This document shows positions 8,003 to 47,949 of a DNA stretch of 57,553 bases, one piece after another. The stretch comes from a plasmid. Position 1 is the first letter of the stretch. Each line of letters begins with the position of its first letter. The stretch is from sequence record NZ_CP045973.1, one strand, 5' to 3'. Both the position numbers and the translations under genes were made by a program. The notes under the pieces are model-generated. The model saw only the letters and a list, made by a program, of their open reading frames with translations. It was not told the origin of the DNA and did no database searches.

Positions 8003-8443
8003 ATGGCGAGAAAAGAATTTCACATCACCGATCAAAATGCAACTTATATCAAAGAGATTAAGAAAGAACTAGGATTTAAAAGTGAAGGGAAAACAATCAA
8101 TTATATTATTCAAACATTCGCCGAAAAACAACGTGATTTTTCGCTTGCTAAATTTATGGAAGACCACTATGAAGAAAATAGAAAATTAACTACACACATA
8201 CGATTAGGTGTCAACTCCGCAGAAAAAACAACACAAGAAATCAAGGAAATGTTAAATAACTATTTCCTATTCAATCGAGAACCAGAGGAAGCATTTTTCC
8301 CAATTGAAAAAGACAAACACTTCATCACACAAAAAGCAGAAGAAGAAGTGCAACGACGATTTAAAATTATGCGTGATAAAACGAAAGAAGCTAGCAGGAA
8401 AAAACAAAAAGACCCTGTAATTCCGGAGCCGGTTCATGAGTAA
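8003..8443 (+). CDS. hypothetical protein (mob-module)
   Basis: 146 aa ORF with RBS, overlaps start of relaxase gene. Confidence 0.45.
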   Translation: MARKEFHITDQNATYIKEIKKELGFKSEGKTINYIIQTFAEKQRDFSLAKFMEDHYEENRKLTTHIRLGVNSAEKTTQEIKEMLNNYFLFNREPEEAFFPIEKDKHFITQKAEEEVQRRFKIMRDKTKEASRKKQKDPVIPEPVHE

Positions 8444-9776
8444 AATAACAGCAGGTATTGTATTAAAGACAAAATTTATTGTTCCGAATAGTCCATTAAA
8501 CAAGTCGAAACAATATTGGCCAAATTATATCAAATATATTGATCGTGATGAAGCCGTTCGTAATGCGCATTATAAAGAATTTAGTTTGATTGGTAATGAA
8601 GAAGAACGTGCAGAAGAAGATAAGGAACGGAATAAAAAATATATTGATTATATGGGCAATCCGCAAAAAACATCTGGCTTATTTACAGAGGGAAAAACCA
8701 GACTGACAGCAGCTGAAAAGAAAAAATATAAATCGGCTTTTCAAACTGCCCAAGATAATAATAGTGTTATGTTTCAACATGTTATCAGTTTTGATAATGA
8801 TTGGTTAGCGAAACAAGGTATTTATGATCCGAGCATTGGCATGCTTGACGAAAAAAGATTGCAACAAGTAACCAGCGCTGCGATGAAAAGCTTTTTGCGT
8901 AAAGAAGAAATGGACGGGAGTGCCATTTGGTTAGCAGCAATCCATAAAAACACTAAACACTTTCATGTCCATATTTCTGTGACGGAACCAAACCCAACTC
9001 GTAAATTCTATTCCAATAAAAAGCGACCAGAGTTGGAAAAAGGAACTGATGGAAATCCAGTAAGAGATGGACGTATGGCACCGGCAACAAGGAGAGCTGT
9101 ACGGAGTACGGTTTATAGTGAAATTGCGCAGCGTGGTGCTTTTTACCAGCGAATTGATGACTATGCGAAAGCACAACTTCTTACGCCACTTCGTGAATCA
9201 AAAGAAGCCCTTCGATCAGAAGAAAACGTTGCTTTATTTCTTGAACTACACCAAATGTATAAGGCACATTCAGGCCAATGGAATTATGGAAACTTAAATA
9301 GGCATCCAGCAAAAAAGGTGGTTGATCAAATCACAACGAATTATTTAATGCAGCATCATCCAGAAGAGATGCAAGTATTTCGTAAAGCGTGGGAACATGA
9401 AGGGAAATTGCAGCAAGAAGCTTATGGAGAGAAAACAGAATTTAATATACACACCTATTTAGAGAGTAAGGATGAAAAATTATATAAGCAATTAGGGAAT
9501 CAAGTTCTTCAGGAAGTAAAAAAATATGATCGCTCGAATGGCGAGTCTAAAGCTAGTGGCCATTATTTAGATCAGCAGGGGAACTTAAAAGTGACCGGAA
9601 GATTAACACCAAAAGATAAACTTGAGAGATATCGACGTCGCCGGGGATCTGTGATTTATCAATTGAAAAAGATGGATTATGAGTTAGATAATTCCTATAA
9701 AAAGTGGAAGAATGACCGGGCCTTTGAAGAACTTGAACAAGAAATGGAAAGGGAAAAATCAGTTCATAGAGGATAG
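8436..9776 (+). CDS. conjugative/mobilisation relaxase (MobA/MobL-type three-histidine motif)
   Basis: 446 aa; 'AIHKNTKHFHVHISV' H-x-N/D...H-x-H metal motif typical of MOB relaxases. Confidence 0.6.
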   Translation: MSKITAGIVLKTKFIVPNSPLNKSKQYWPNYIKYIDRDEAVRNAHYKEFSLIGNEEERAEEDKERNKKYIDYMGNPQKTSGLFTEGKTRLTAAEKKKYKSAFQTAQDNNSVMFQHVISFDNDWLAKQGIYDPSIGMLDEKRLQQVTSAAMKSFLRKEEMDGSAIWLAAIHKNTKHFHVHISVTEPNPTRKFYSNKKRPELEKGTDGNPVRDGRMAPATRRAVRSTVYSEIAQRGAFYQRIDDYAKAQLLTPLRESKEALRSEENVALFLELHQMYKAHSGQWNYGNLNRHPAKKVVDQITTNYLMQHHPEEMQVFRKAWEHEGKLQQEAYGEKTEFNIHTYLESKDEKLYKQLGNQVLQEVKKYDRSNGESKASGHYLDQQGNLKVTGRLTPKDKLERYRRRRGSVIYQLKKMDYELDNSYKKWKNDRAFEELEQEMEREKSVHRG

Positions 9777-9786
9777 GAGCTAAAGG

Positions 9787-10158
9787 ATGCAAAAAAGAAA
9801 TAGAACAAGAAAGAAAATACGGCCAAAACGGAAAACATGTTTGATAGAACCAGATGATATTTGTGTAACCACGGTCATGTATCAAGAAGAGACGAACAGG
9901 AAAGTGAGACCAGTAGTAGTTCTTGAGATTGATAAAGAAAAAGAAATTGCCTGGTGTCATAAAATGACGACAAAACCAAAAGGGATTCCTTTAAGGAGGT
10001 GGATCGAAGAAGGCCTTTTCAAGCCAACGTTCGTGGATATTCGTATGATTATTCCAGTAAAAATGAACGCTATGGTACGGATAGGGGTACTGCATCCCGA
10101 AGATAAAAGCAGCCTATCTAGTAAGAAATCGTGTACATCACTAGGGATTACGCTATAA
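9787..10158 (+). CDS. PemK/MazF-like fold protein (putative toxin) with basic N-terminal extension
   Basis: 'PDDICVTTVMYQEETNRKVRPVVVLE' resembles GDI...RP-vVV core of MazF/PemK. Confidence 0.3.
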   Translation: MQKRNRTRKKIRPKRKTCLIEPDDICVTTVMYQEETNRKVRPVVVLEIDKEKEIAWCHKMTTKPKGIPLRRWIEEGLFKPTFVDIRMIIPVKMNAMVRIGVLHPEDKSSLSSKKSCTSLGITL

Positions 10159-22431: not shown

Positions 22432-23235
22432 GGTTCTGTTGCGAAGTTTGAAAATCAAACGCGCCCTCTCTGAACTCCAAATATCTTAGGCTGTTATTCC
22501 CATTAATACCTTGATTTCAGTAGACACCGAAAAGCCGAAGAGCGTTCCATTTCTTCGGTTCTTTTTATATATTCCTCGAATGGTCTCCATGCCCTTAATC
22601 GTGGAAGAGGCTGTACGGAGACTTTGATAAAATTTATTTCGTCGTTTAATAGGTCGATGGTCTTGTTCTATTAAATTGTTAAGATACTTCACAGTTCGGT
22701 GCTCTGTCTTAGTATATAAACCCACACTCTGTAACTTTCTAAAGGCGGAGCCAAGAGAAGGTGCTTTATCGGTCACAATTGCTTTCGGCTCACCAAACTG
22801 TTTATGGAGTCGTTTTAAGAAAGCATAGGCTGCTTGCGTATCCCGTTTCTTTCGTAACCAGATATCTAAGGTTAAGCCGTCCGCATCAATTGCACGATAA
22901 AGATAATGCCAACGTCCCTTAATTTTGATATAGGTTTCGTCCATTTTCCATGAATAGAAGGATTGTCTATTTTTCTTCTTCCAAAGATAATAGAGGACTT
23001 TGCTGTACTCTTGCACCCAACGATAAATCGTAGTATGACAAACATTTATTCCACGATCATATAACAATTCCTGAACTTCACGATAGCTTAGATTGTAACG
23101 CAGGTAGTAACCAACAGCGACAATAATGACGTCTTTTTTGAATTGTTTGCCTTTAAAATGATTACTCTGTCCTCTCTGTCTTTTTTCTCAATTTTACACT
23201 AAAATAGATTTTTTGGAAAACTTTGCAACAGAACC
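22432..23235. mobile_element. IS6-family element, copy 3
   Basis: IRs 'ggttctgttgcgaagttt' (22432-22449) and 'ggaaaactttgcaacagaacc' (23215-23235). Confidence 0.85.
22486..23067 (-). CDS. IS6-family transposase; canonical ATG start appears lost (N-terminal 'NHFKGKQFKK...' is in frame but no start codon)
   Basis: In-frame N-terminal residues continue to 23163 but preceded by TGA without ATG/GTG/TTG; rest identical in style to copies 1/2. Confidence 0.7.
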   Translation of the reverse strand: MLYDRGINVCHTTIYRWVQEYSKVLYYLWKKKNRQSFYSWKMDETYIKIKGRWHYLYRAIDADGLTLDIWLRKKRDTQAAYAFLKRLHKQFGEPKAIVTDKAPSLGSAFRKLQSVGLYTKTEHRTVKYLNNLIEQDHRPIKRRNKFYQSLRTASSTIKGMETIRGIYKKNRRNGTLFGFSVSTEIKVLMGITA

Positions 23236-23238
23236 AAA

Positions 23239-23394
23239 AAAGTAGTTCAAATTATCCCTAAAATAAAAAGCATTTCTAAAGACGGCGAAAAATATTTATA
23301 TGAATTTAAACCAGATCATATTTATCAAAAACTAAGTACATTAAATGAAAGAGAGCTTGAATCTCTAGAACATGTATTAGGTTTAGAATTTTAA
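23239..23394 (+). pseudogene. 3' remnant (~51 codons) of an unknown gene truncated by IS6 copy 3
   Basis: Frame opens immediately after IS6 IR: '...KVVQIIPKIKSISKDGEKYLYEFKPDHIYQKLSTLNERELESLEHVLGLEF*'. Confidence 0.3.
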
Positions 23395-23396
23395 TT

Positions 23397-23606
23397 TGCT
23401 TATTTTTAATGGCCAATAGAGTATGCCTTAACGCCCAATTGTCTAATAAAAGTTTCAGCCAAATAGAAAATGGACGAATAAGTTGCGCATATAATAATTG
23501 TTTTATAGTGGGCAAAAAATACGGGTTGTATGATGCTACCAATAAGATACTTATTCTCATTTTTGTTGAGATACCGATAAATATCTGTTCCCTGTTTTGT
23601 AATAAG
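23397..23606 (-). pseudogene. remnant carrying a serine-recombinase (resolvase) C-terminal HTH segment
   Basis: Minus-strand translation '...TDIYRYLNKNENKYLIG' and ~45 bp of DNA (23543-23600) ~85% identical to 3' end of resolvase 26920..27498 (26911-26968). Confidence 0.35.
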
Positions 23607-23611
23607 ATTAT

Positions 23612-25465
23612 TTAATTATTTTTTTCTATATACCATTTTTTTGATATCTTAGCACTATTACCATCTGTATTAGGTATTGCCTCACCAAATGAAGTTAACA
23701 TGGGAATTCGTATTGCTGAGCCGAAAACGAGAGCATGCCCTGTTTGTAAATAAGTCAAACGATCAATTGTGTCTCTATCAATATATGGAACCATTCGAGA
23801 TATATAATTTAAATCATCAGGATTTTGAATTCTATGAACGATAAAATTACTACATTGAGAAACTACCGTTTTTGATAAATCACTAGGTCTTTGTGTAGAA
23901 ACACACATCAAAAATCCATATTTTCTACCTTCTTTTGAAATTCTTTGAAATATATCAAAATCATATGTCCCATGTGAAAGAGTATTATCTTTTATATACC
24001 TATGTGCTTCTTCAATAAATAAGTTTATAGGTTTATCTGCTTTTTTTTGATGCCCTTTTTGATAATCTAAAATTATTTTAGCTAGCACTCTTATAAGAAC
24101 CTCCGCCATTGAATCATTCATAGCACTTATATCTATGTTTACAATATTACTATTGTCCAAAAACTTCTCAAAAAAAGATTCTTTATTTTTAAATTGAGTT
24201 ACATTGAAAATCCTACTAAAAGATGACTCTACTAAACTTTGCATTCTAGAAACTAATGGCGCGGTGTATTCTTGTACTCTTTGACTATTCAAGCTTCCTT
24301 CATATAAAATGGCAAATTTCATAGCAGTTAAAAAATTATTAGGTGAAAAACGTACTAATTGGTCAAATTTAAATTCTTCCATTTGAGTAAAATTTACATA
24401 TGATTGTAAAAAAGAGATGATTTTTTCAATATCGTCCATTTTTCCATAGGCCACATTTATACTATTTCTTAAAGTTTTTTCATCATTGATTTTTGTGTCT
24501 AGATTAATGCTCTGAGTTTGGAAGTTTGATAATAATGAACTTACTTTATCTGCTTTAGATGGGGATGATTCAGAGCTATTTAACATAGCTATGATAGTAG
24601 AAGCTAGTATATGGTTCTTAGCATCTTCAGAATTACTATTATCCGAAAAGAAAATTTGAACTACTTCCATTGTTTTCCTTAAAACTGGAATTTGGGTTTT
24701 TTCTGATGCATTTAGCAAAATAGCCCAATCATCTACTGATAACAGCCAAATTGGAACTTCAAAATTATCCTCGTCTGAAAGTGGTTTAATGAATTGGCAC
24801 TTAATATCATTATTATTTTCTTCTATTTTAGAAAAAGATTTTTGATATTCACCATTGGAATCAATCAGGATTAATCTAGATCCAAGTGCTGAATAATTTG
24901 ACTTTAAATATATATTTTGAATTATTCTTGCAATGGAGTTAGACTTACCTGCTCCAGTATTTCCAAATATAGCCGAATGGTAGCCAAAAAACTTATCTAA
25001 ATCTACTTTCACATCGTATTCTGAGAATAAAACTGATTTTCCTAATGAAAATGTTGCAACTCTAGTATTACCATCAGAAACGTTAATTTCAGAATTCTTT
25101 ACATCTAACATGATATCTAATTCTTCGTTTGTAACAATGTGAACTTCAGAATAAAGTAGAGGCATTTTAGATACCCCAAAAAAGAACTCATTATTAGTAA
25201 TCTCACCTATCAATCTTAAAGAAATAACTCTACTAGCATTAGGTTTAGCTAACGGAGCACTGGAAATATGTCGAGAACTTTCGGCAGATAATACTTCGGC
25301 TATCAGAGTTCGACCTAATTCGTAAATTGATACATATGTTCCAATCTCTCCAACAAACCTAGTTTCATCCAATGTATTTATATAATTATCTATATTATTA
25401 AATACTTCTGCTAATACTATGGAATTTTTAATAAGGATTAGCCTTCCAATAGAACGATTATTCAT
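23612..25465 (-). CDS. herA: HerA-like (FtsK/HerA superfamily) ATPase, partner of SIR2 protein
   Basis: 617 aa; Walker A 'GNTGAGKSNS', Walker B 'INLFIEEAHRY'; start overlaps stop of upstream SIR2 gene by 8 nt. Confidence 0.75.
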   Translation of the reverse strand: MNNRSIGRLILIKNSIVLAEVFNNIDNYINTLDETRFVGEIGTYVSIYELGRTLIAEVLSAESSRHISSAPLAKPNASRVISLRLIGEITNNEFFFGVSKMPLLYSEVHIVTNEELDIMLDVKNSEINVSDGNTRVATFSLGKSVLFSEYDVKVDLDKFFGYHSAIFGNTGAGKSNSIARIIQNIYLKSNYSALGSRLILIDSNGEYQKSFSKIEENNNDIKCQFIKPLSDEDNFEVPIWLLSVDDWAILLNASEKTQIPVLRKTMEVVQIFFSDNSNSEDAKNHILASTIIAMLNSSESSPSKADKVSSLLSNFQTQSINLDTKINDEKTLRNSINVAYGKMDDIEKIISFLQSYVNFTQMEEFKFDQLVRFSPNNFLTAMKFAILYEGSLNSQRVQEYTAPLVSRMQSLVESSFSRIFNVTQFKNKESFFEKFLDNSNIVNIDISAMNDSMAEVLIRVLAKIILDYQKGHQKKADKPINLFIEEAHRYIKDNTLSHGTYDFDIFQRISKEGRKYGFLMCVSTQRPSDLSKTVVSQCSNFIVHRIQNPDDLNYISRMVPYIDRDTIDRLTYLQTGHALVFGSAIRIPMLTSFGEAIPNTDGNSAKISKKWYIEKNN

Positions 25466-26669
25466 TTATATTTCCTCCGTTTTCCCTTATTTCTGAGAAA
25501 ACTTTGTTTATTTGTTCAGAAATTTTTTGTTTTTCCTGTTCTTCGCTTGGGATAGCCGGCATTAACTTCTCAACAAAATTATTAAAATAATGAATTTTAT
25601 TTTTTGAATTAATGATAGTAATTCTACTATCATCCATATTTTTAATTTTCCCTATATTGGTCTCTATTTTCTCATCAGCATTATTTTCGTATTCAGTATC
25701 GCCTAAGATGATTAGCCTAAAAGAAGGAATTGATAAATTATTTAGTATTATTCGATTGATGTGATCGTCGCCAAAGCTGTAACCTAGTGTAATTAATACA
25801 CTATTCTTTTGGGTTAAATTATCTTGAAACGATCGCATTAAATCTGTATAGGGTACCATTAAGGTACTTCTATCTTTTAAAGGTGTTGGATATATCATCA
25901 CATTCTCAAGAGAACTTTTATCTATTTCTTTCATGGATATTTCATATATCTTATCTTCGCTTTTTTTCCATGAAATAGATCCGTGAATTTTATACAAATT
26001 ATAAAAATGATCAACTCTGTTCCATACATCCTTATTTAAATTCATATTGTCCACATACATATATCTATACATATTTGGGTTGAATGTTCTCATATATGAA
26101 CCAGTAAATCCGCTATTATAAATAAAATTCAATTCATCCAATGCACGCTCATTATACATATCATAATTTGTAGTTACTATATTAATTGGACTTTTTCTAC
26201 TTGAAGAAATTGTTTTTAAATAAAGCTTTTTGTATATTTCAGATAGCTCCTTGCAATCCATGCCTTGAGTAATTTTATCTGTAATGAATTTTTTAACAAT
26301 ATTAATCTTTTTATCAATTTCTTTATCAATTTCCTTAATATGATTTACTTGTCTGAGCGCATTCATGAAATCCATCAGTTCTTCAAGATTTCGGTTAACT
26401 TTATCTTCTATACCAACACCCAATATTTCGAAATCTGGGTTTGATTTTATGAAGTCTTTAAAAAGACCAGCCATTGTAGATATAGCTGCTTCTTCATTAT
26501 CGATATAAAAGCTAGAGCAACCTGCACCCATTAATATAGAAAGATTTTCCATTTGTAATGCTTGAGCAATGGTTTTTTGTACATCACTTAGAGATTTTTT
26601 TACTTTATTAGCTCCTTGGTAGTAATTAATTTCTTCATCAATTTGATTCAAACCTAATCCCTCCAACAA
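25458..26669 (-). CDS. SIR2-like (sirtuin-fold, NAD+-binding) protein of SIR2-HerA defence pair
   Basis: 'LMGAGCSSF' GAGxS Rossmann motif, 'VTTNYDMYNE' and 'KIHGSISW' (N/D and His of sirtuin catalytic core); likely start TTG 26654 after GGAGGGA RBS. Confidence 0.7.
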   Translation of the reverse strand: MLEGLGLNQIDEEINYYQGANKVKKSLSDVQKTIAQALQMENLSILMGAGCSSFYIDNEEAAISTMAGLFKDFIKSNPDFEILGVGIEDKVNRNLEELMDFMNALRQVNHIKEIDKEIDKKINIVKKFITDKITQGMDCKELSEIYKKLYLKTISSSRKSPINIVTTNYDMYNERALDELNFIYNSGFTGSYMRTFNPNMYRYMYVDNMNLNKDVWNRVDHFYNLYKIHGSISWKKSEDKIYEISMKEIDKSSLENVMIYPTPLKDRSTLMVPYTDLMRSFQDNLTQKNSVLITLGYSFGDDHINRIILNNLSIPSFRLIILGDTEYENNADEKIETNIGKIKNMDDSRITIINSKNKIHYFNNFVEKLMPAIPSEEQEKQKISEQINKVFSEIRENGGNINE

Positions 26670-26919
26670 CTATAAATACTTTATAACAATTATATCATTA
26701 TTAAATACATTTTTTCCTATAGTTCTTTTTTTAGTCAGGCGAATAAGTTATGTATTAGAATAGAAGGAAGTAGAAATCTATGCTCTAATTTAGTGAAAAA
26801 TTTGTGGACCCTGCTATAATGATACTCGATTAACATAGGTAGATAAACGTGAATCGAGTATTTTTTACTTGAAACGGCAAGACAAATTTGGCTTAAGCAC
26901 AACGCGGCTAATAAGATAT

Positions 26920-27498
26920 TTATTCGCTCTGATTTTTGTTGAGATATCGATAAATCGTTGTTCGCGAAACATTCCAGCGTGCAGCAATTGTTTTAATGGG
27001 AGTTCCATTATCAATGAGGGTTCGCATTAAAGCCAGATCTTCTGCTGTTAGTTTTTCCGGCCGGCCACCAAAACGACCTCTTGCCCGAGCAGCTTCTCTT
27101 CCTGCTGCAGAACGTTCTAAAATCAAATTCCGTTCAAATTCTGCGAAAGCAGCGAACAAATGAAAGATAAGCTGGCCGGTGGAACTGGATTTATTCATCG
27201 TAATATTTTCTTGGAGACTATGAAAACTGATCCCATTATCATTTAGTTGATTGACAACACGAATAAGATCTTCCATATTCCTACCTAATCGATCTAAACG
27301 CCAAACCACAATCGTATCTCCAGAACGACAAAAATCAATCGCAGCGTCCAATCCAGGGCGTTTACTTTTTGCGCCACTGATATGATCCTGGAAAATTTTC
27401 TCACAACCATCTTTTTCTAAACTATCGATTTGTAAATCTAAATTTTGTAAGCCAGTTGAAACTCGTGCATACCCAATTTTCAATTTCGTCACATCCAT
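26920..27498 (-). CDS. serine recombinase (resolvase/invertase family)
   Basis: 'IGYARVSTGLQNLDLQ' catalytic Ser region; C-terminal HTH. Confidence 0.85.
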   Translation of the reverse strand: MDVTKLKIGYARVSTGLQNLDLQIDSLEKDGCEKIFQDHISGAKSKRPGLDAAIDFCRSGDTIVVWRLDRLGRNMEDLIRVVNQLNDNGISFHSLQENITMNKSSSTGQLIFHLFAAFAEFERNLILERSAAGREAARARGRFGGRPEKLTAEDLALMRTLIDNGTPIKTIAARWNVSRTTIYRYLNKNQSE

Positions 27499-40899: not shown

Positions 40900-41325
40900 A
40901 TGATAAAAGTTAAATTTGATCTTTTGCAAATGTATTTTGAAGATAACGATATTACTGTTTATGCCATTTCTAAAGTTACTGGAATAAGTGCACAAGCATT
41001 AAATAATTTCAAAGCTCGTTCTTTCACTGGTGGGGAACGTGTGACAAATCGAATCACAGGGTTACATGTACAAAAGATTGCAGAAGCCTTAGCAAAAAAT
41101 CCCGGTAAAGTATTCAACGACCTCATTTACTTAGAGAATGAGGTCATGCTTTCCTTAGAAGAACTAAAAGAGAACGCAAAAAATTGGCGAATGAATGGGG
41201 ATAGCCCAGAAGACGTTACTACCTCTATATATCCCATTATTGAAGAACAGTGGGAAAATAAAGTCATTCAATCCTTTTTGAAAGCGTATATGAAAGAGTT
41301 TATCAAAGATGAATGGAGGCTGTAA
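40900..41325 (+). CDS. hypothetical protein
   Basis: Start abuts previous stop. Confidence 0.4.
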   Translation: MIKVKFDLLQMYFEDNDITVYAISKVTGISAQALNNFKARSFTGGERVTNRITGLHVQKIAEALAKNPGKVFNDLIYLENEVMLSLEELKENAKNWRMNGDSPEDVTTSIYPIIEEQWENKVIQSFLKAYMKEFIKDEWRL

Positions 41326-42051
<726 letters not shown>

Positions 42052-42066
42052 AAGGGGGTTGATGAT

Positions 42067-42783
42067 TTGGCTCTTGAACCGGGTATTAAATGGAACAAAC
42101 TTACTGTCTTAAAAAAAGCTAGTGAGAGAAGTAAAAGCGGTGCAACTTTATATCTTTGTCAGTGTGATTGTGGCAACACCTGTAAGGTAAACGGTACAAA
42201 ACTAACGAGCGGACATACAAAGAGTTGCGGGTGTCTAATAAAAGATACAGCGGCAAAAAAATTTGAAAGGTTTATTGGAAAGAAATACGGGCAGCTAACG
42301 ATCATCAAAGATTCAAGGAAAAGGACATCTAGGGGTCAGCGTATTGTTCTTTGCCAGTGTGACTGTGGCAATTTTGCTGAAGTTATATTTTCAAAATTGA
42401 GTAGTGGCCATACAAAAACTTGTGGGTGTAAAGAAGTAGAACGCATTAAAAATTTATCTAAGTTGATCACAAATGAGGATCGCGTAAAAGCGGTCGATAC
42501 GCTAAAAAAACATCATATTCTTATTGAAAAAACAAAAATAAATATGATCAAACCCGATAAAAAAATATTAACGTCTAACAAAAGTGGCGTTACTGGTGTT
42601 TGTTATGATAAAAACAGGAAAAAATGGGTAAGTCAAATTACTTTTCAAGGGAAAAATATTAATTTAGGTAGGTTTATCCGTTTTGAGGATGCTGTGAAAG
42701 CTAGAAAAAATGCGGAAGAAATTTATTTTAAACCAATTTTAAAAAAATATGAAAATAGAGGCGGTAGAAAAAATGAAAAATAA
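42067..42783 (+). CDS. protein with two CxC-x-CxxC zinc-ribbon repeats and C-terminal AP2-like DNA-binding domain
   Basis: Duplicated 'LCQCDCGN...KL(T/S)SGHTK(S/T)CGC' and 'SGVTGVCYDKNRKKWVSQITFQGKNINLGRFIRFEDAVKARKNAEEIY' (AP2/HNH-associated). Confidence 0.5.
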   Translation: MALEPGIKWNKLTVLKKASERSKSGATLYLCQCDCGNTCKVNGTKLTSGHTKSCGCLIKDTAAKKFERFIGKKYGQLTIIKDSRKRTSRGQRIVLCQCDCGNFAEVIFSKLSSGHTKTCGCKEVERIKNLSKLITNEDRVKAVDTLKKHHILIEKTKINMIKPDKKILTSNKSGVTGVCYDKNRKKWVSQITFQGKNINLGRFIRFEDAVKARKNAEEIYFKPILKKYENRGGRKNEK

Positions 42784-42872: not shown

Positions 42873-43742
42873 TTAAGCAGCTGAAATTTTCTGTTCAAAC
42901 TTGTTTGGGGATAAATAAGCTAATGAGCTATGAATTCGGCGATTGTTATAGAAGCCTTGCACATAGCTGAAAACTTGAAGCTTTGCTTCTTCAAAATTGG
43001 AATAAGCAGATCGTTGGTAAACATGCTCTTTCTTTAGCAGCGCATGGAAAGACTCGATTCCAGCGTTATCATACGGACAGCCTTTTTGGCTGTATGAATG
43101 GCAGAGATTCATTGCTTTTAACTTTGTTTCATAGTCGATACTTGTATATTGCGAACCTAAATCGGTATGAAGGATCAGTCCTTTTTCTATCTTTCGTTTA
43201 GAAAATGCATCATCTAGGGCTTTAAGGACGATAGAAGTCTGCATTGTTCGATCAAAGTGATACCCAATAATTTTTCGGGAATGCAAATCCATGATGGTGG
43301 ATAAATAGCACCAGCCGTCTGCGAGAGTATAGATATAAGTAATATCAGCTACCCATTTTTGATTGAGTCCAGTCGTTGAAAAATCTTGATTCAATAGATT
43401 TTTATAAGTTTTCAAGATCCTTTTCGTCGGTCTTCCTGCTTTGAATTTCTTTACCGTGATAGACCGCAGGTTTTGTCTTCTCATTGATTTTTGGACACGT
43501 TTGATACTGATGTCCGGATATTCGTGGTACGAACTTGCTAACAAATAACGAAGTTTCCCAGCTCCATAGATTCCTTGATTTTCTTGATACAATCGTAAAA
43601 CACGTTGATCCAACAACTGATCGGCTCGCTTTCTTTTGGAAACAATCAGATTTAAATGCCTATAGTAGGAACTTCTGGAAACACCAAGACTCGTACACAT
43701 TTTTAAAATGCTATGGCGGCCTGCTTCTTGTTCTTGGTTCAT
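42873..43742 (-). CDS. IS3-family transposase OrfB (DDE integrase)
   Basis: 'WVADITYI...HTDLGSQYTS...YDNAGIESFH' DDE. Confidence 0.85.
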   Translation of the reverse strand: MNQEQEAGRHSILKMCTSLGVSRSSYYRHLNLIVSKRKRADQLLDQRVLRLYQENQGIYGAGKLRYLLASSYHEYPDISIKRVQKSMRRQNLRSITVKKFKAGRPTKRILKTYKNLLNQDFSTTGLNQKWVADITYIYTLADGWCYLSTIMDLHSRKIIGYHFDRTMQTSIVLKALDDAFSKRKIEKGLILHTDLGSQYTSIDYETKLKAMNLCHSYSQKGCPYDNAGIESFHALLKKEHVYQRSAYSNFEEAKLQVFSYVQGFYNNRRIHSSLAYLSPNKFEQKISAA

Positions 43743-43756
43743 CCATTCTAGGATGG

Positions 43757-44020
43757 CTATTTCTTTGCGAGCAGACCGAGTGCTTTTTTTAAGATGAGGA
43801 GTTCTTCATCCTTTTCTTTCAATTGTTTTTTTAATCGTTTGACTTCGTTAGAAGTAGGCCCTCCGGGACTGATAGGTGTATTCCCTTGAATCCACTTCAA
43901 AATGGTGGAGTAACCAACTTCGTAATCAGCAGCCAGTTGCCGGGGTGTTTGTCCTTGTTCATGAAGATCAAGTATCGTTTGTTTAAAATCTTCTGTATAG
44001 CGTTTGGGCATGTAAGACAC
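43757..44020 (-). CDS. IS3-family transposase OrfA (HTH, leucine zipper)
   Basis: 87 aa HTH protein ending at frameshift window. Confidence 0.8.
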   Translation of the reverse strand: MSYMPKRYTEDFKQTILDLHEQGQTPRQLAADYEVGYSTILKWIQGNTPISPGGPTSNEVKRLKKQLKEKDEELLILKKALGLLAKK

Positions 44021-44301
44021 CTTCCTTTGAGATTAATTTTACCCTCTCTTAAAAGTTGTCTCAACTTCTATCCTACATCCAGAGCTTTAAATATTATATT
44101 TACGATCTATATGATAAAAGATCTTACAACGGCAATTTTGAATCAGGAATACTTTGCCGCAGTGAACTCGATACTATCCATTGCAATCCTCGTGGTGATC
44201 ATGACCATTAGTTTACCAGTCTTTAAATTTCCTGCTAAGAAATAATATTATTATGAAGAGGCTGGACATAAAGTTGCTTTTTACCTAAAATAACGATAAA
44301 A

Positions 44302-44352
44302 AGGAATCGCATGAAATACTATTTTTAATAATGGATTTCATGCGATTCTTTC
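44302..44352. repeat. perfect 14-bp inverted repeat hairpin (gaatcgcatgaaat/atttcatgcgattc, 22-nt loop)
   Basis: Read directly; U-rich on minus-strand 3' side. Confidence 0.6.
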
Positions 44353-44534
44353 TCCATGTTGAATTATGAGCCAAACCCGTTTTTATTGGGATAAGAAGGC
44401 ATATATATTTTTATATATAGAAAGACTGTAAGGACTTAACAGATAATGAAACCGGCTATGTGATATTTTTATTTCGATAATTAGTATATAATTAAATGTA
44501 AGGGATACAGTAAAAATTAGGAGGGGAGAGTATC

Positions 44535-46301
44535 ATGGCTTTAGATTTTAATAATGAACAAATCGAACATTTTGCAGCAGCATGTTTAATAGAGTATTTT
44601 GCTTACGACAGTAAAACTCAACCTGAGTTTAAATTAGCAGATAAGTCGGCTGGATATGATGGTATGATCTATTTCTATAATATAGATCAGGGTGATAAAA
44701 GAAAAAAAGAGCAAGTTGAATGTGTTTTTTATGTACAAATCAAAGGGACTTTTGACAAAATTAAGGATAGAAAAACAGAGAATTTCAATATTGTGTTAGA
44801 TGATTTAAAATTTTATGATAAAACAAATGATCATTGTTTGTATTTTAAAGTAGCCCTGAAAGTTATTAATGGAAAAGTTATAAAGACACCTTACTATCAC
44901 TTTTTTTCAAAACTTGAATTAAACAGGCTAATGGAAGATATGAGGAATAATAACAATACAAACCGGAGGATACCGTTCACTAAAATGGGTGACACTAAAA
45001 GTTTTCAGGCAATATTACAAAATTTAAAAGGAGATTTACATCAGTTTGTTATCTCAAAAGAAAAACTTGCTGAAATGAAAGCTAATCCAGAAGGCGTACA
45101 TATTTCAAGAGAATTAGTTATTACAGACTATTCGTCCTTAGAAAGTCTGTATGGAGAAGAATTTACACTCTATGCAAAAGGTGAATTTGGTGAAAAAGGT
45201 GCTGTAGGAAGTGTTACGTTTGAGAAACAGTTATTTGATGAAAGTCTGGATTTTATCATTGAATTTGGTTACATAGATACAGTGTATGCTCAATCAACTT
45301 CTTCAATAGATCGTACTATGAAAGGTATAGAAATAACAAAATCAATTAAACTATATATTCGCGAACTTGCTGATAAAAGAGGAATAAATATTAGTTTTAA
45401 TTATTCATTAAATGAGGAAGAAACGATAGAAACGTTAGCGCGCAGTCATAAAATTATGGAATATTTGCGAACAAATGGTAAAATCAAAATCAATGGATAC
45501 GCAATGGAAATTAATTTAAACGTAGAATCGGACACATCAAACTTTGAAGAATTTTCAAAAGTTCATTTTCAAATACTGAACGCAATGAGACATTTTGAAA
45601 TGAATCTTGGTGAAAGTATCAAAAATATATCTGAAAAACAAGTAAAAGAACTGCTTTATATGTATGATATAGAGCAAGGTAAAACAATAAGCGAAAAAGA
45701 TAGGTTGGTCTACTTTGAGTTTGGATCAAGGGCTTATTATTTTATTTTTAGTAAAAACAACGTCTATAATATCCTGTCAGAAAACTTTGATAAACAGCTT
45801 TATTTGAGGGTTAAAATAGATGATAAATCATACGAACACATTCCCAACTTTATGTTGGTTACACAAAATATTCATAAAGTCTATAATTTCAATTTCGAAG
45901 CTGTACAAAACAAAATAAATGAAAGTGTTCTACAAAATAATCAGGAAATGCTTTTTAATAGGTATGAGTTACAACTGATAAGTGACTATGATAACAACAG
46001 AGATAAGAGAGTTTTAAGCTTAGCAGCCTCAATAAATGAGTTACTGCTAGAAAAAGAGCCTAATAACATGATTGAAAAAATCAATTATTGGCAGATAGTA
46101 GCTAGAAAAAAGGGGTTATCCTCTGACGATATTAAAGAACTAAAAGATATTGTTCAGGATAGTAATTATACAGAAGACGTGCATTTAGCAGCTAAAGTTT
46201 TAATTAATACTAGATTCAAAGGTGAATTTAGCTTAGAAAAAGATAGTTTGGACTCTATTAGGGAGTATCCAATTTATAACTTAGTAAATACTATAGATTA
46301 G
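44535..46301 (+). CDS. uncharacterised 588-aa protein with PD-(D/E)xK-like N-terminal motif (DUF4365-like, inference)
   Basis: GGAGGGGAG RBS; 'GYDGMIYF...ECVFYVQIKGT' D...(Q/E)xK pattern; no P-loop. Confidence 0.6.
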   Translation: MALDFNNEQIEHFAAACLIEYFAYDSKTQPEFKLADKSAGYDGMIYFYNIDQGDKRKKEQVECVFYVQIKGTFDKIKDRKTENFNIVLDDLKFYDKTNDHCLYFKVALKVINGKVIKTPYYHFFSKLELNRLMEDMRNNNNTNRRIPFTKMGDTKSFQAILQNLKGDLHQFVISKEKLAEMKANPEGVHISRELVITDYSSLESLYGEEFTLYAKGEFGEKGAVGSVTFEKQLFDESLDFIIEFGYIDTVYAQSTSSIDRTMKGIEITKSIKLYIRELADKRGINISFNYSLNEEETIETLARSHKIMEYLRTNGKIKINGYAMEINLNVESDTSNFEEFSKVHFQILNAMRHFEMNLGESIKNISEKQVKELLYMYDIEQGKTISEKDRLVYFEFGSRAYYFIFSKNNVYNILSENFDKQLYLRVKIDDKSYEHIPNFMLVTQNIHKVYNFNFEAVQNKINESVLQNNQEMLFNRYELQLISDYDNNRDKRVLSLAASINELLLEKEPNNMIEKINYWQIVARKKGLSSDDIKELKDIVQDSNYTEDVHLAAKVLINTRFKGEFSLEKDSLDSIREYPIYNLVNTID

Positions 46302-46312
46302 AGGAATGTATT

Positions 46313-47053
46313 ATGTTATTTGATTTATCTACGAATGATAAGGCTAAAGAAACTTTAGCAACGTTTTTAAGGCTGGACTTGGAAAAATTAGAAACTCTCC
46401 TTGAGGAATATTCAGACGATGAACCGACGGAATGCATTAAAAACTATATTCCAAAAGACGCCCAAGCAATTGCTGAACGATCCACGATTAAATTTTTCCA
46501 TATAACAACCACAATTGATGGTTTTGCTTCTGTCAAAGAAAATGGACTATTAGGTCTTGAAGAATTACTCAGTACAAATTCTTCATTTACTAATTTTCTG
46601 AAAAAGAATAATATAGACTACAATGAGAATAAACAAACACTATTAATTGAAGAAAAAGAGATCGATATAAACCAGGAAGATTGGAACAACGTGAAACAGC
46701 GTATTACTTTCGATTTTAATATAAATGGTTTTTATTTTATTGATGATAGTAATAAGAACTACAGTTCAGTAAATAAACGTCCTGAATTTTTCTTTGATTT
46801 AGATACGGTTTTAAATGGGAAATATAATTTAAGTGACAAATGGGAGAAGTTATCAAAATCCTATTTGCTAGAAATAGAAATATCGTGGAAAGATTGGGGC
46901 CCAAATGAGGTTATAGAAAATTTTAATGAAATGTTAGAAATATTAGTTGCTAGAGCCAAGAGTGCAAGCTGTGGCGTAAATGAAGTTTGTTATGTGAAAA
47001 GAAATAAAAATATTTTACCACAAGAAATCAAAACATATATAGAAATTGAATGA
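46313..47053 (+). CDS. uncharacterised 246-aa protein, operonic with 588-aa gene
   Basis: 11-bp gap, GAGGAAT RBS; no recognisable motif. Confidence 0.55.
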   Translation: MLFDLSTNDKAKETLATFLRLDLEKLETLLEEYSDDEPTECIKNYIPKDAQAIAERSTIKFFHITTTIDGFASVKENGLLGLEELLSTNSSFTNFLKKNNIDYNENKQTLLIEEKEIDINQEDWNNVKQRITFDFNINGFYFIDDSNKNYSSVNKRPEFFFDLDTVLNGKYNLSDKWEKLSKSYLLEIEISWKDWGPNEVIENFNEMLEILVARAKSASCGVNEVCYVKRNKNILPQEIKTYIEIE

Positions 47054-47340
47054 CTCATAGGATATAAAAATAGGACAATAGTTTCCAGTTATTTGCTCGA
47101 AAAGCAAACACTTGACCTAAAAATCATGATTTAAGTCTATTGTGCTGATTATAGAAAGACAATCGAACTAGTAAAAAGTATCTTAATAACAATAAGGTGA
47201 GTCTAGAAATTATAATTTCTAGACTTTTTTTGTGCCGACGAACGAATGCGGGTTTTAAGTACTTAAAAATGCTTGTTTTTGTCTACAAGATAGTCTATAA
47301 TTAAAGGTATAGAATATTGCATATTATAGACTGTTAGAAG

Positions 47341-47949
47341 GTGGAAAAGTTGAAATTAGGATATGCACGTGTGAGTACGGTCGGTCAAGATCTGCAGACA
47401 CAGATCGAAAAGCTCAAAAATGCTGGGATCACGGATGATTATCTATTTATTGAAAAAAAATCTGGGACGACCACAAGAAATCGACATGAGCTTGAAAATT
47501 TACTGAAGCAGGCAAGAAACGGTGATCATGTCTTTGTGACAAAGATTGATCGACTAGCAAGATCGATTATTGATTTAAATAACGTGATGAACCGATTTAA
47601 AGAAAAAGGCGTCAGCGTCACTTTTTTAGATAATAACATGACGTTTGAAGCAGATACCGAAAATAATGCGATGCAACGTCTGTTATTTAATGTGCTTGGA
47701 TCCTTTGCAGAATTTGAGCGAGATATGATCGTCAATCGGACTGGAGAAGGTCGACAACGTGCAAAGGCAGCTGGAAAGAAATTAGGTCGTACAGGTCAGC
47801 CAGAAGAAAAAATTCGGAGAGCAATCGCGATGTGGAAGAATAGAAAACAATTGGATGTATCTATTTCTGAAATTGTAGAAGATACTGGTGTCCCAAGAGC
47901 AACGCTTTATAAAAAAATAAAGGAGATGGAGAAAGAGAATGAAAAATAA
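47341..47949 (+). CDS. serine recombinase (resolvase family)
   Basis: 'KLGYARVSTVGQDLQTQ'; likely true start TTG 47350. Confidence 0.85.
   Translation: MEKLKLGYARVSTVGQDLQTQIEKLKNAGITDDYLFIEKKSGTTTRNRHELENLLKQARNGDHVFVTKIDRLARSIIDLNNVMNRFKEKGVSVTFLDNNMTFEADTENNAMQRLLFNVLGSFAEFERDMIVNRTGEGRQRAKAAGKKLGRTGQPEEKIRRAIAMWKNRKQLDVSISEIVEDTGVPRATLYKKIKEMEKENEK

Follow-up and report, generated by a model that had tools for sequence, protein, structure and literature searches.

The DNA described here is a stretch of 57,553 nucleotides (nt) from the plasmid record NZ_CP045973.1, referred to below as the window. It represents a pLM-type plasmid of Listeria (L. monocytogenes and L. innocua), and all 78 matching PLSDB records are from Listeria. 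According to the list of open reading frames (ORFs), two genes adjoin each other on the plus strand, geneA (44535-46301; 588 amino acids (aa)) and geneB (46313-47053; 246 aa), and their products are currently annotated as hypothetical proteins (WP_003728513 and WP_003728512). A first-pass annotation, made from the letters alone, had singled out this pair as an uncharacterised cassette and a candidate defence system. We consider this cue to the cassette as a whole to be sound, and the functional reading, which is built from sequence comparison, remains that of a candidate. In this study, geneA is presented as a defence candidate with a PD-(D/E)xK effector, in which a DREN nuclease forms part of a new architecture; what is new is chiefly the unstudied family to which geneA belongs and its orphan partner, geneB.

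The two genes are separated by 11 nt, and each is preceded by a Shine-Dalgarno sequence, in agreement with the first-pass description of co-oriented genes with ribosome-binding sites. Reading of the sequence places that of geneA, AGGAGGGGAG, at 44519-44528 (plus strand; AGGAGG at 44519-44524 and a second GGAG at 44525-28), and that of geneB, GAGGA, at 46301-46305 (plus strand), where it lies 7 nt before the ATG and overlaps the geneA stop codon. A putative -10 box of the geneA-geneB operon, TATAAT (44487-44492, plus strand), was located by the alignment of upstream regions in a conserved block (ATAGTCTATAAT / TTAGTATATAAT). The GC content of the cassette is 29.4%, compared with 36.0% for the window, which places it within the lowest 2.2% of 2.8-kb windows; its low GC content had been noted correctly, although at a figure of about 28%. 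This composition fits horizontal acquisition. A 3.4-kb query that spans the pair (44000-47400) was wholly covered in 22 PLSDB records at an identity of 99.9-100%.

Structure and spread of the geneA family

An exhaustive profile search with geneA retrieved 2132 cluster representatives at E<=1e-3, of which 250 were found at E<=1e-30. Nearly all of these representatives are 575-610 aa long and align with geneA from end to end. The family, which comprises more than 2000 clusters at 50% identity, extends over the Bacillota, Bacteroidota, Actinomycetota, Spirochaetota and Verrucomicrobiota, and it also occurs on plasmids and phage-plasmids. A word-seeded search with geneA returned the Listeria homologues and one full-length protein at 22% identity, and the same type of search with a profile of 102 sequences returned the same six Listeria proteins and nothing more. 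The genome scan for family members used a sub-alignment whose sequences share DKTPSWDG. Among catalogued families, the one that covers the whole protein is phrog_9827, to which PHROGs assigns no function; it aligns with residues 5-584 of geneA over positions 3-579 of its 584 (E 8.7e-18), and relatives of geneA match it at 1e-95 to 1e-97.

Residue conservation was read from the alignment of 102 sequences, which are about 18% identical to geneA. D42, G43, Q68, K70, D486, N517 and Q520 are invariant (D42, Q68 and K70 in 102/102 sequences), E11 is present in 99 of the 102, and D36 is nearly invariant. The protein can be divided into three parts, all on the plus strand. The N-terminal part (about aa 1-170; 44535-45044) is a PD-(D/E)xK nuclease domain of the DUF4365/DREN type with the alpha-beta fold of such nucleases, and its putative catalytic residues are E11, D36, D42, Q68 and K70. 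It is followed by a central beta-rich region (about aa 171-465; 45045-45929) without a match in Pfam or among PDB sequences, and by a helical TPR-like domain (about aa 466-588; 45930-46298) that contains the invariant residues D486, N517 and Q520.

In TmuRE, a SPARDA protein, sequence alignment pointed to two residues of the DUF4365 domain, Q62 and K64, as potential members of the active site, and a Q62A/K64A mutant was made as an inactive control (PMC10810196). Because Q68 and K70 of geneA are the counterparts of these two residues, we consider the N-terminal domain of geneA to be a DUF4365/DREN-type nuclease whose predicted active site is intact. The restriction-endonuclease-like D...QxK pattern reported by the first-pass annotation as reminiscent of DUF4365 is real and conserved, but its aspartate is D42 rather than D41. 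Pfam places DUF4365 (PF14280) on aa 39-98 of geneA at 14.8 bits (E 0.029), and its gathering score is 24.3 bits. DUF4365 was the sole recurrent Pfam family among the relatives (19 of 40 at E<=0.1, best 2.4e-7), one of which, P0151, exceeds the gathering score (33.3 bits), and several carry the PGAP label 'DUF4365 domain-containing protein'.

Beyond this domain, sequence searches returned little. The last 420 residues of geneA have no known relative detectable by sequence, a profile search of the family against PDB sequences gave zero matches, and neither Pfam nor PDB sequence searches found a known DNA-binding or modification-reading domain. No match to geneA was found in NCBIfam, nor in PADLOC-DB 2.0 at E<=1. 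The large protein had been described as lacking a P-loop, and a Walker A motif is indeed absent from both geneA and geneB.

Relationship to known nuclease systems

A Foldseek search with an AlphaFold model of geneA, as the first-pass annotation had proposed, identified a SPARDA DREN-APAZ chain as the best match (9qcc_M, E 2.9e-4; also 9vx6_P). The AlphaFold2 (AF2) models of geneA and geneB were built on shallow alignments that did not yet include the large family, and the alignment of geneA to the 401-aa SPARDA chain covers about 169 columns, which correspond to the nuclease domain; the middle region is poorly modelled. The SPARDA proteins TmuRE, NbaSPARDA and XauSPARDA share with geneA an N-terminal DUF4365/DREN PD-(D/E)xK nuclease with the QxK signature, which in both cases forms the first part of a larger, regulatory polypeptide associated with defence. 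However, no short prokaryotic Argonaute gene was found in the window, in the loci of relatives that were inspected or among the 25 commonest neighbouring Pfam families; no APAZ domain was detected in geneA within the limits of the poor model of its middle region, the part of geneA beyond the nuclease consisting of the beta-rich region and the TPR-like domain; and nothing indicates a guide nucleic acid for geneA. Because Argonaute is absent and the APAZ domain was not detected, we rejected geneA as a SPARDA system.

Shedu (SduA, DUF4263) resembles geneA in that a single protein combines a PD-(D/E)xK nuclease with a regulatory or sensor portion that varies; both occur on plasmids as well as in defence islands, and one relative of geneA adjoins a Shedu gene. 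The two differ in nuclease family (DUF4263 vs DUF4365) and in domain order, which is reversed in geneA, where the nuclease is N-terminal, and PADLOC reported no Shedu match. The YhcG/DUF1016 nucleases (PADLOC candidate PDC-S02) are likewise PD-(D/E)xK enzymes inserted in restriction-modification (R-M) operons, one of them in the same operon as a geneA relative, but they represent another nuclease family with another architecture, and geneA gave no DUF1016 signal. The archaeal Holliday-junction resolvase Hjc and the fusellovirus nuclease D212 resemble the geneA nuclease in fold at 9-10% sequence identity; they are single-domain proteins of about 120-170 aa, and the likeness is one of fold, not function. 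An N-terminal DUF4365 has also been reported for Divona, an experimentally identified anti-phage gene of an integron cassette (bioRxiv 10.1101/2024.07.02.601686). According to its description, Divona is set apart from geneA by the fusion of DUF4365 and a RecB/Mrr-like nuclease to a crr6 domain. As to type II R-M systems, the window and the other Listeria variants alike lack a methyltransferase in the vicinity of the pair.

geneB and the integrity of the pair

Homologues of geneB form four clusters, every one of them from Listeria, and geneB always lies downstream of geneA or of a geneA pseudogene. The protein is acidic (pI 4.6). The first-pass annotation saw no recognisable motif in it, and our searches of Pfam, NCBIfam, PADLOC, PHROGs and PDB sequences likewise found no match; relatives were also absent from the JGI metagenome and IMG/VR viral scans, and a Foldseek search with the poor model of geneB was uninformative. 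Two specific relationships were considered, and neither was supported. The block 'FHITTTIDxxAS[IV]KxxG[LI]L' is suggestive of a DarT-type ADP-ribosyltransferase (DUF4433), but this likeness found no support in sequence searches: DUF4433 had no match in four geneB homologues at E<=10, and the PADLOC and PDB sequence searches were likewise empty. Remote homology to DUF4391 proteins, or to a 197-aa protein encoded beside the geneA relative P0006, was given a probability below 1% by hhalign in both cases.

Across Listeria, the two genes have stayed together despite considerable divergence (63-78% identity for geneA and 50-60% for geneB), and the 10-11-nt junction and the ribosome-binding site of geneB are kept in all variants. 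The pair occurs on plasmids of the window and pLIS32 types, on a 104-kb contig from a different sample and on the chromosome of L. grayi. The ratio of nonsynonymous to synonymous substitution (dN/dS) is 0.27-0.39 for geneA and 0.24-0.54 for geneB, values from which both genes are judged to be under purifying selection.

Three findings, however, narrow the reading of the pair as a two-gene system. No geneB-like neighbour was found at any of 60 wider-family loci from several phyla (best E 0.26); across these loci there is no universal partner, and many members are solitary. In pLI42-type plasmids (L003, 9749-9820), geneA is intact with all catalytic residues, and geneB has been cut to its last 20 or so codons. 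Conversely, several L. grayi genomes (L006-L009, about 8217-9990) have an in-frame stop in geneA (SRT*VIPD) and an intact geneB, and in another lineage (L005, 9799-10001) geneA is frameshifted near codon 55. The obligatory co-occurrence that characterises a type II toxin-antitoxin pair is therefore not seen. Because the wider loci do not contain geneB, pLI42 has lost almost all of geneB, and geneA is disrupted in L. grayi and L005, we regard geneB as a Listeria-specific add-on that is neither an obligatory antitoxin nor a core subunit. The two-gene system proposed by the first-pass annotation therefore holds within Listeria but not for the wider family, and co-occurrence of the two genes in other genomes, on which that proposal had been made to depend, was seen in Listeria variants only.

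Genomic neighbourhood

In Listeria, the pair lies directly to the right of a variable slot, the occupants of which were identified by PADLOC as Ppl (1.2e-41), AbiJ (1.1e-15) and AbiQ (1.1e-54, labelled AbiQ/ToxN). In this window, the slot is occupied by a solitary Cas5b (PADLOC 1.3e-38) beside an AP2-domain protein. The Cas5b homologue (41329-42051, within 40900-42783) is unaccompanied by other cas genes, has no Pfam match at E<=1e-3 and lies between an unknown protein of 141 aa and the AP2-domain protein (42067-42783); it is unusual for a plasmid to carry an orphan Cas5.

For the wider family, 140 neighbours of geneA relatives were tallied, and the Pfam summary covers the 25 commonest families. 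The tallies include type III methyltransferases (8), ResIII (5), DUF4391 (4), SNF2 (3), dGTPase (3), GmrSD (2) and DUF4238 (2), and further neighbours are type II methyltransferases, integrases (3/140) and relaxases; methyltransferases occur in only a minority of the loci. At L025 (4095-12852), a geneA-family gene lies inside an operon in which it follows SNF2 and DUF4391 genes and precedes genes for an N6/N4 methyltransferase and a YhcG/DUF1016 nuclease, and the arrangement recurs at L048, L062, L028 and L030. In P0151 (793 aa), DUF1016_N is fused to a full geneA-family body. These cases suggest a functional link among the geneA family, the YhcG/DUF1016 nucleases and this R-M-like system. Other relatives, on plasmids or phage-plasmids, adjoin Shedu and a methyltransferase, a SEFIR protein, or an integrase and a NERD protein.

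The nearest non-Listeria homologue, P0006 (L004, 63-3760), lies downstream of a DUF4238 protein and the 197-aa unknown protein mentioned above and upstream of an HTH_3 protein. DUF4238 is a single-gene defence family under the name Rst_DUF4238; the DUF4238 protein at this locus had no match in PADLOC 2.0. At six Bacteroidota loci (L047, L052, L056-L058 and L073), a divergent gene for a 150-aa RadC-like JAB-domain protein precedes the family member (position -1) by about 340 nt.

The neighbourhood pattern of the family is the usual signature of defence-island cargo, as judged from raw tallies without a background control. The neighbourhoods speak for the defence role proposed in the first-pass annotation, whereas PADLOC-DB 2.0 recognises neither geneA nor geneB at E<=1. 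Literature searches on the protein accession and on Listeria plasmid defence retrieved nothing relevant.

DNA flanking the pair

Upstream of the pair lie IS3-family ORFs on the minus strand (42873-44020; orfB 42873-43742 and orfA 43757-44020), and downstream lies a plus-strand gene for a serine recombinase of the resolvase family (47341-47949; 202 aa); in L014, the identical gene is annotated with Pfam Resolvase. Both flanking elements had been reported by the first-pass annotation, but its description of the IS3 element as complete could not be upheld, as terminal inverted repeats were looked for and not found. A plus-strand ORF stub (43886-44245; meaningful part about 44100-44245) encodes a hydrophobic C-terminal tail that ends in AILVVIMTISLPVFKFPAKK and a stop codon, and it appears to owe its truncation to the insertion of IS3. 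At 92% identity, the stub region matches part of the L. grayi plasmid NC_014496; searches found window-type plasmids and this partial match only, and no parent gene. No version of the junction free of IS3 was found either, since one record that seemed to be IS3-free also carries the element.

The perfect 14-bp inverted repeat reported at 44302-44352 was recovered as the core of a plus-strand hairpin at 44301-44351, with arms of 17 nt (44301-44317 and 44335-44351) that match at 94%, a folding free energy of -27.4 kcal/mol and a z of -7.3. It is confined to window-type plasmids and begins 56 nt after the stop codon of the stub (44245). Its absence from the other Listeria variants and its position behind this stop codon argue against it as a regulator of the cassette; it is probably the intrinsic terminator of the truncated stub gene.

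A perfect palindrome, GAGTCTAGAAAT-TATA-ATTTCTAGACTT, followed by a T-run, lies at 47199-47226 (plus strand), after geneB and 115 nt before the start codon of the recombinase gene. Its sequence is GTCTAGAAATTATAATTTCTAGAC, and the consensus across the Listeria variants is GTCTAGAAAT-TAT(A/G)-ATTTCTAGAC. In every other Listeria variant, the palindrome is found about 105-120 nt upstream of geneA (L002 7846-7867; L003 7834-7855; L005 9660-9681; L006-L009; L011-L016 9858-9879). According to the alignment of the upstream regions, it opens a portable leader of about 150 nt (47199-47340, plus strand), in which some 130 nt of promoter leader follow the palindrome, with a conserved spacer, a TATAAT box and a 5' untranslated region. 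This leader precedes the recombinase gene in the window and geneA in the other Listeria variants; homology sets in precisely with the palindrome, to the left of which the sequences are unrelated. The palindrome may terminate transcription after geneB or act as an insulator, and it may also, or instead, be a res-like recombination or operator site used by serine recombinases, a suggestion drawn from its position and from the example of res site I of Tn3/gamma-delta. Under either reading, it marks a boundary at which defence cargo is swapped.

The only other region of the window with a comparably low GC content is the SIR2/DUF87 region. This second block (29.4%; about 23000-27000) most likely represents a pair of SIR2-family and DUF87 (HerA-like) genes, an assignment made from the GC profile and gene order; such a pair, with an adjoining recombinase, is annotated in the related plasmid pCFSAN021143. 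It is the island to which the first-pass annotation had likened the cassette.

Discussion

Context favours a role in defence for geneA and geneB, and we consider the pair to be a credible candidate for an immunity module. In our best explanation, to which we give an even chance of being correct, geneA is a latent sensor-nuclease from a widespread, uncatalogued family that acts in phage or plasmid defence, and geneB is its Listeria-specific modulator. The protein would be a self-contained, sensor-coupled nuclease in which the beta-rich middle and the TPR-like C-terminal domain hold the DREN-type domain inactive until a cue derived from a phage or plasmid is bound. Activated geneA would then cut DNA, and it would either destroy the invader or, by cutting indiscriminately as in SPARDA, lead to abortive infection. 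The wider family would represent a single-gene module that hops among defence islands, R-M operons, plasmids and phage-plasmids, and the Listeria lineage would have acquired geneB as a translationally coupled downstream partner. The function of geneB would most likely be one of modulation, such as that of an extra sensor, an adaptor or a brake, rather than that of an essential subunit or obligatory antitoxin. The palindrome would mark a boundary prone to recombination, with the pair on its constant side and different known defence genes swapped in on the other. Of this picture, the intact nuclease motif and fold, the breadth of the family and its often solitary members, the defence-rich surroundings, the selection and the operon structure come from observation, whereas the sensing of a trigger by the middle and C-terminal regions, DNA degradation upon activation and the part played by geneB are inferred. 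A fuller and more tentative version, which we believe is somewhat more likely to fail than to hold as a whole, states that the family of about 590 aa is an unrecognised single-protein immune sensor-nuclease absent from PADLOC and DefenseFinder-type catalogues, that geneB has a novel fold and alters sensing or restraint, and that the palindrome is a serine-recombinase site for cassette swapping.

Several observations weigh against this explanation. The link to defence is one of guilt by association, and the neighbour counts behind it have no background control. The geneA protein of the window falls below the Pfam gathering threshold for DUF4365 (14.8 vs 24.3 bits), and PADLOC-DB 2.0 matched neither geneA nor nine full-length relatives (E<=0.01 for the relatives). 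Structural prediction leaves the middle region of geneA unsettled, with a predicted local distance difference test (pLDDT) score mostly below 50 in the AF2 model, and the model of geneB is unusable (pLDDT 42.8). Moreover, the module is dispensable, because geneA has become a pseudogene in L. grayi and is frameshifted in one other lineage.

That geneA might be a solitary restriction endonuclease, sequence- or modification-dependent (type IV or type IIS-like) and non-abortive, with geneB as an unrelated passenger, is in our view unlikely. A PD-(D/E)xK domain with a large non-catalytic remainder is also the plan of Mrr or MspJI-type enzymes, relatives of geneA often adjoin or lie inside R-M operons with methyltransferases, and the window has no cognate methyltransferase, as a type IV enzyme would allow. 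However, geneA has no detected domain of known DNA-binding or modification-reading type, a TPR-like C-terminus is more typical of protein or peptide sensing, and the conserved junction and the purifying selection on geneB are not expected of a passenger. The tight coupling of a small acidic partner to geneA across a conserved junction, on a plasmid, is also what would be seen if geneA were a toxic nuclease and geneB its inhibitor or DNA mimic, in a toxin-antitoxin-like addiction system that keeps the plasmid by post-segregational killing; a MazEF pair close by on the same backbone demonstrates that such modules occur there. Each gene is known without an intact partner, and a strict toxin-antitoxin pair is therefore disfavoured: pLI42-type plasmids keep a catalytically complete geneA after the near-total loss of geneB, and L. 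grayi retains geneB with a nonsense-mutated geneA. Furthermore, the 60 wider-family genes all lack a geneB-like neighbour and are in many cases solitary, the pair is also chromosomal, and a three-domain toxin of 588 aa is atypical of type II systems. We consider addiction to be decidedly improbable.

The independent inactivations just cited, together with the frameshift in L005, could also be taken as signs of decaying or selfish cargo without a present function in these plasmids. This interpretation deserves slightly less credit than addiction, as dN/dS is 0.24-0.54 across copies that are 50-78% identical, the sequence is 99.9-100% identical in at least 22 plasmids, and every invariant residue of the family is kept in geneA. 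We give least credence to the idea that geneA is an accessory of a mobile element, a recombination or transfer nuclease that works with the neighbouring serine recombinase and the palindrome and has no immune role. In every plasmid variant from Listeria, the pair is flanked by recombinase genes, a possible res-like palindrome stands at the module boundary, some relatives adjoin integrases, and the nuclease fold resembles that of Holliday-junction resolvases. Nevertheless, most wider-family loci have no recombinase nearby (integrases account for 3 of 140 neighbours), the orientation and identity of the recombinase vary among the Listeria variants, members of the family lie within R-M operons and defence islands, and similarity to Hjc is a general feature of the PD-(D/E)xK fold.

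If geneA is a defence gene, as our best explanation holds, a new and very widespread family of single-gene nucleases would be added to the catalogue of prokaryotic immunity, and the DREN/DUF4365 effector of SPARDA would also be used without Argonaute. The variable slot bounded by the palindrome suggests a route by which defence cargo could be exchanged on Listeria plasmids. Plasmids of the pLM type are common among L. monocytogenes isolates from food processing, and a plasmid-borne anti-phage module beside a hot spot for Ppl, AbiJ and AbiQ would affect the phage-based biocontrol of this species.

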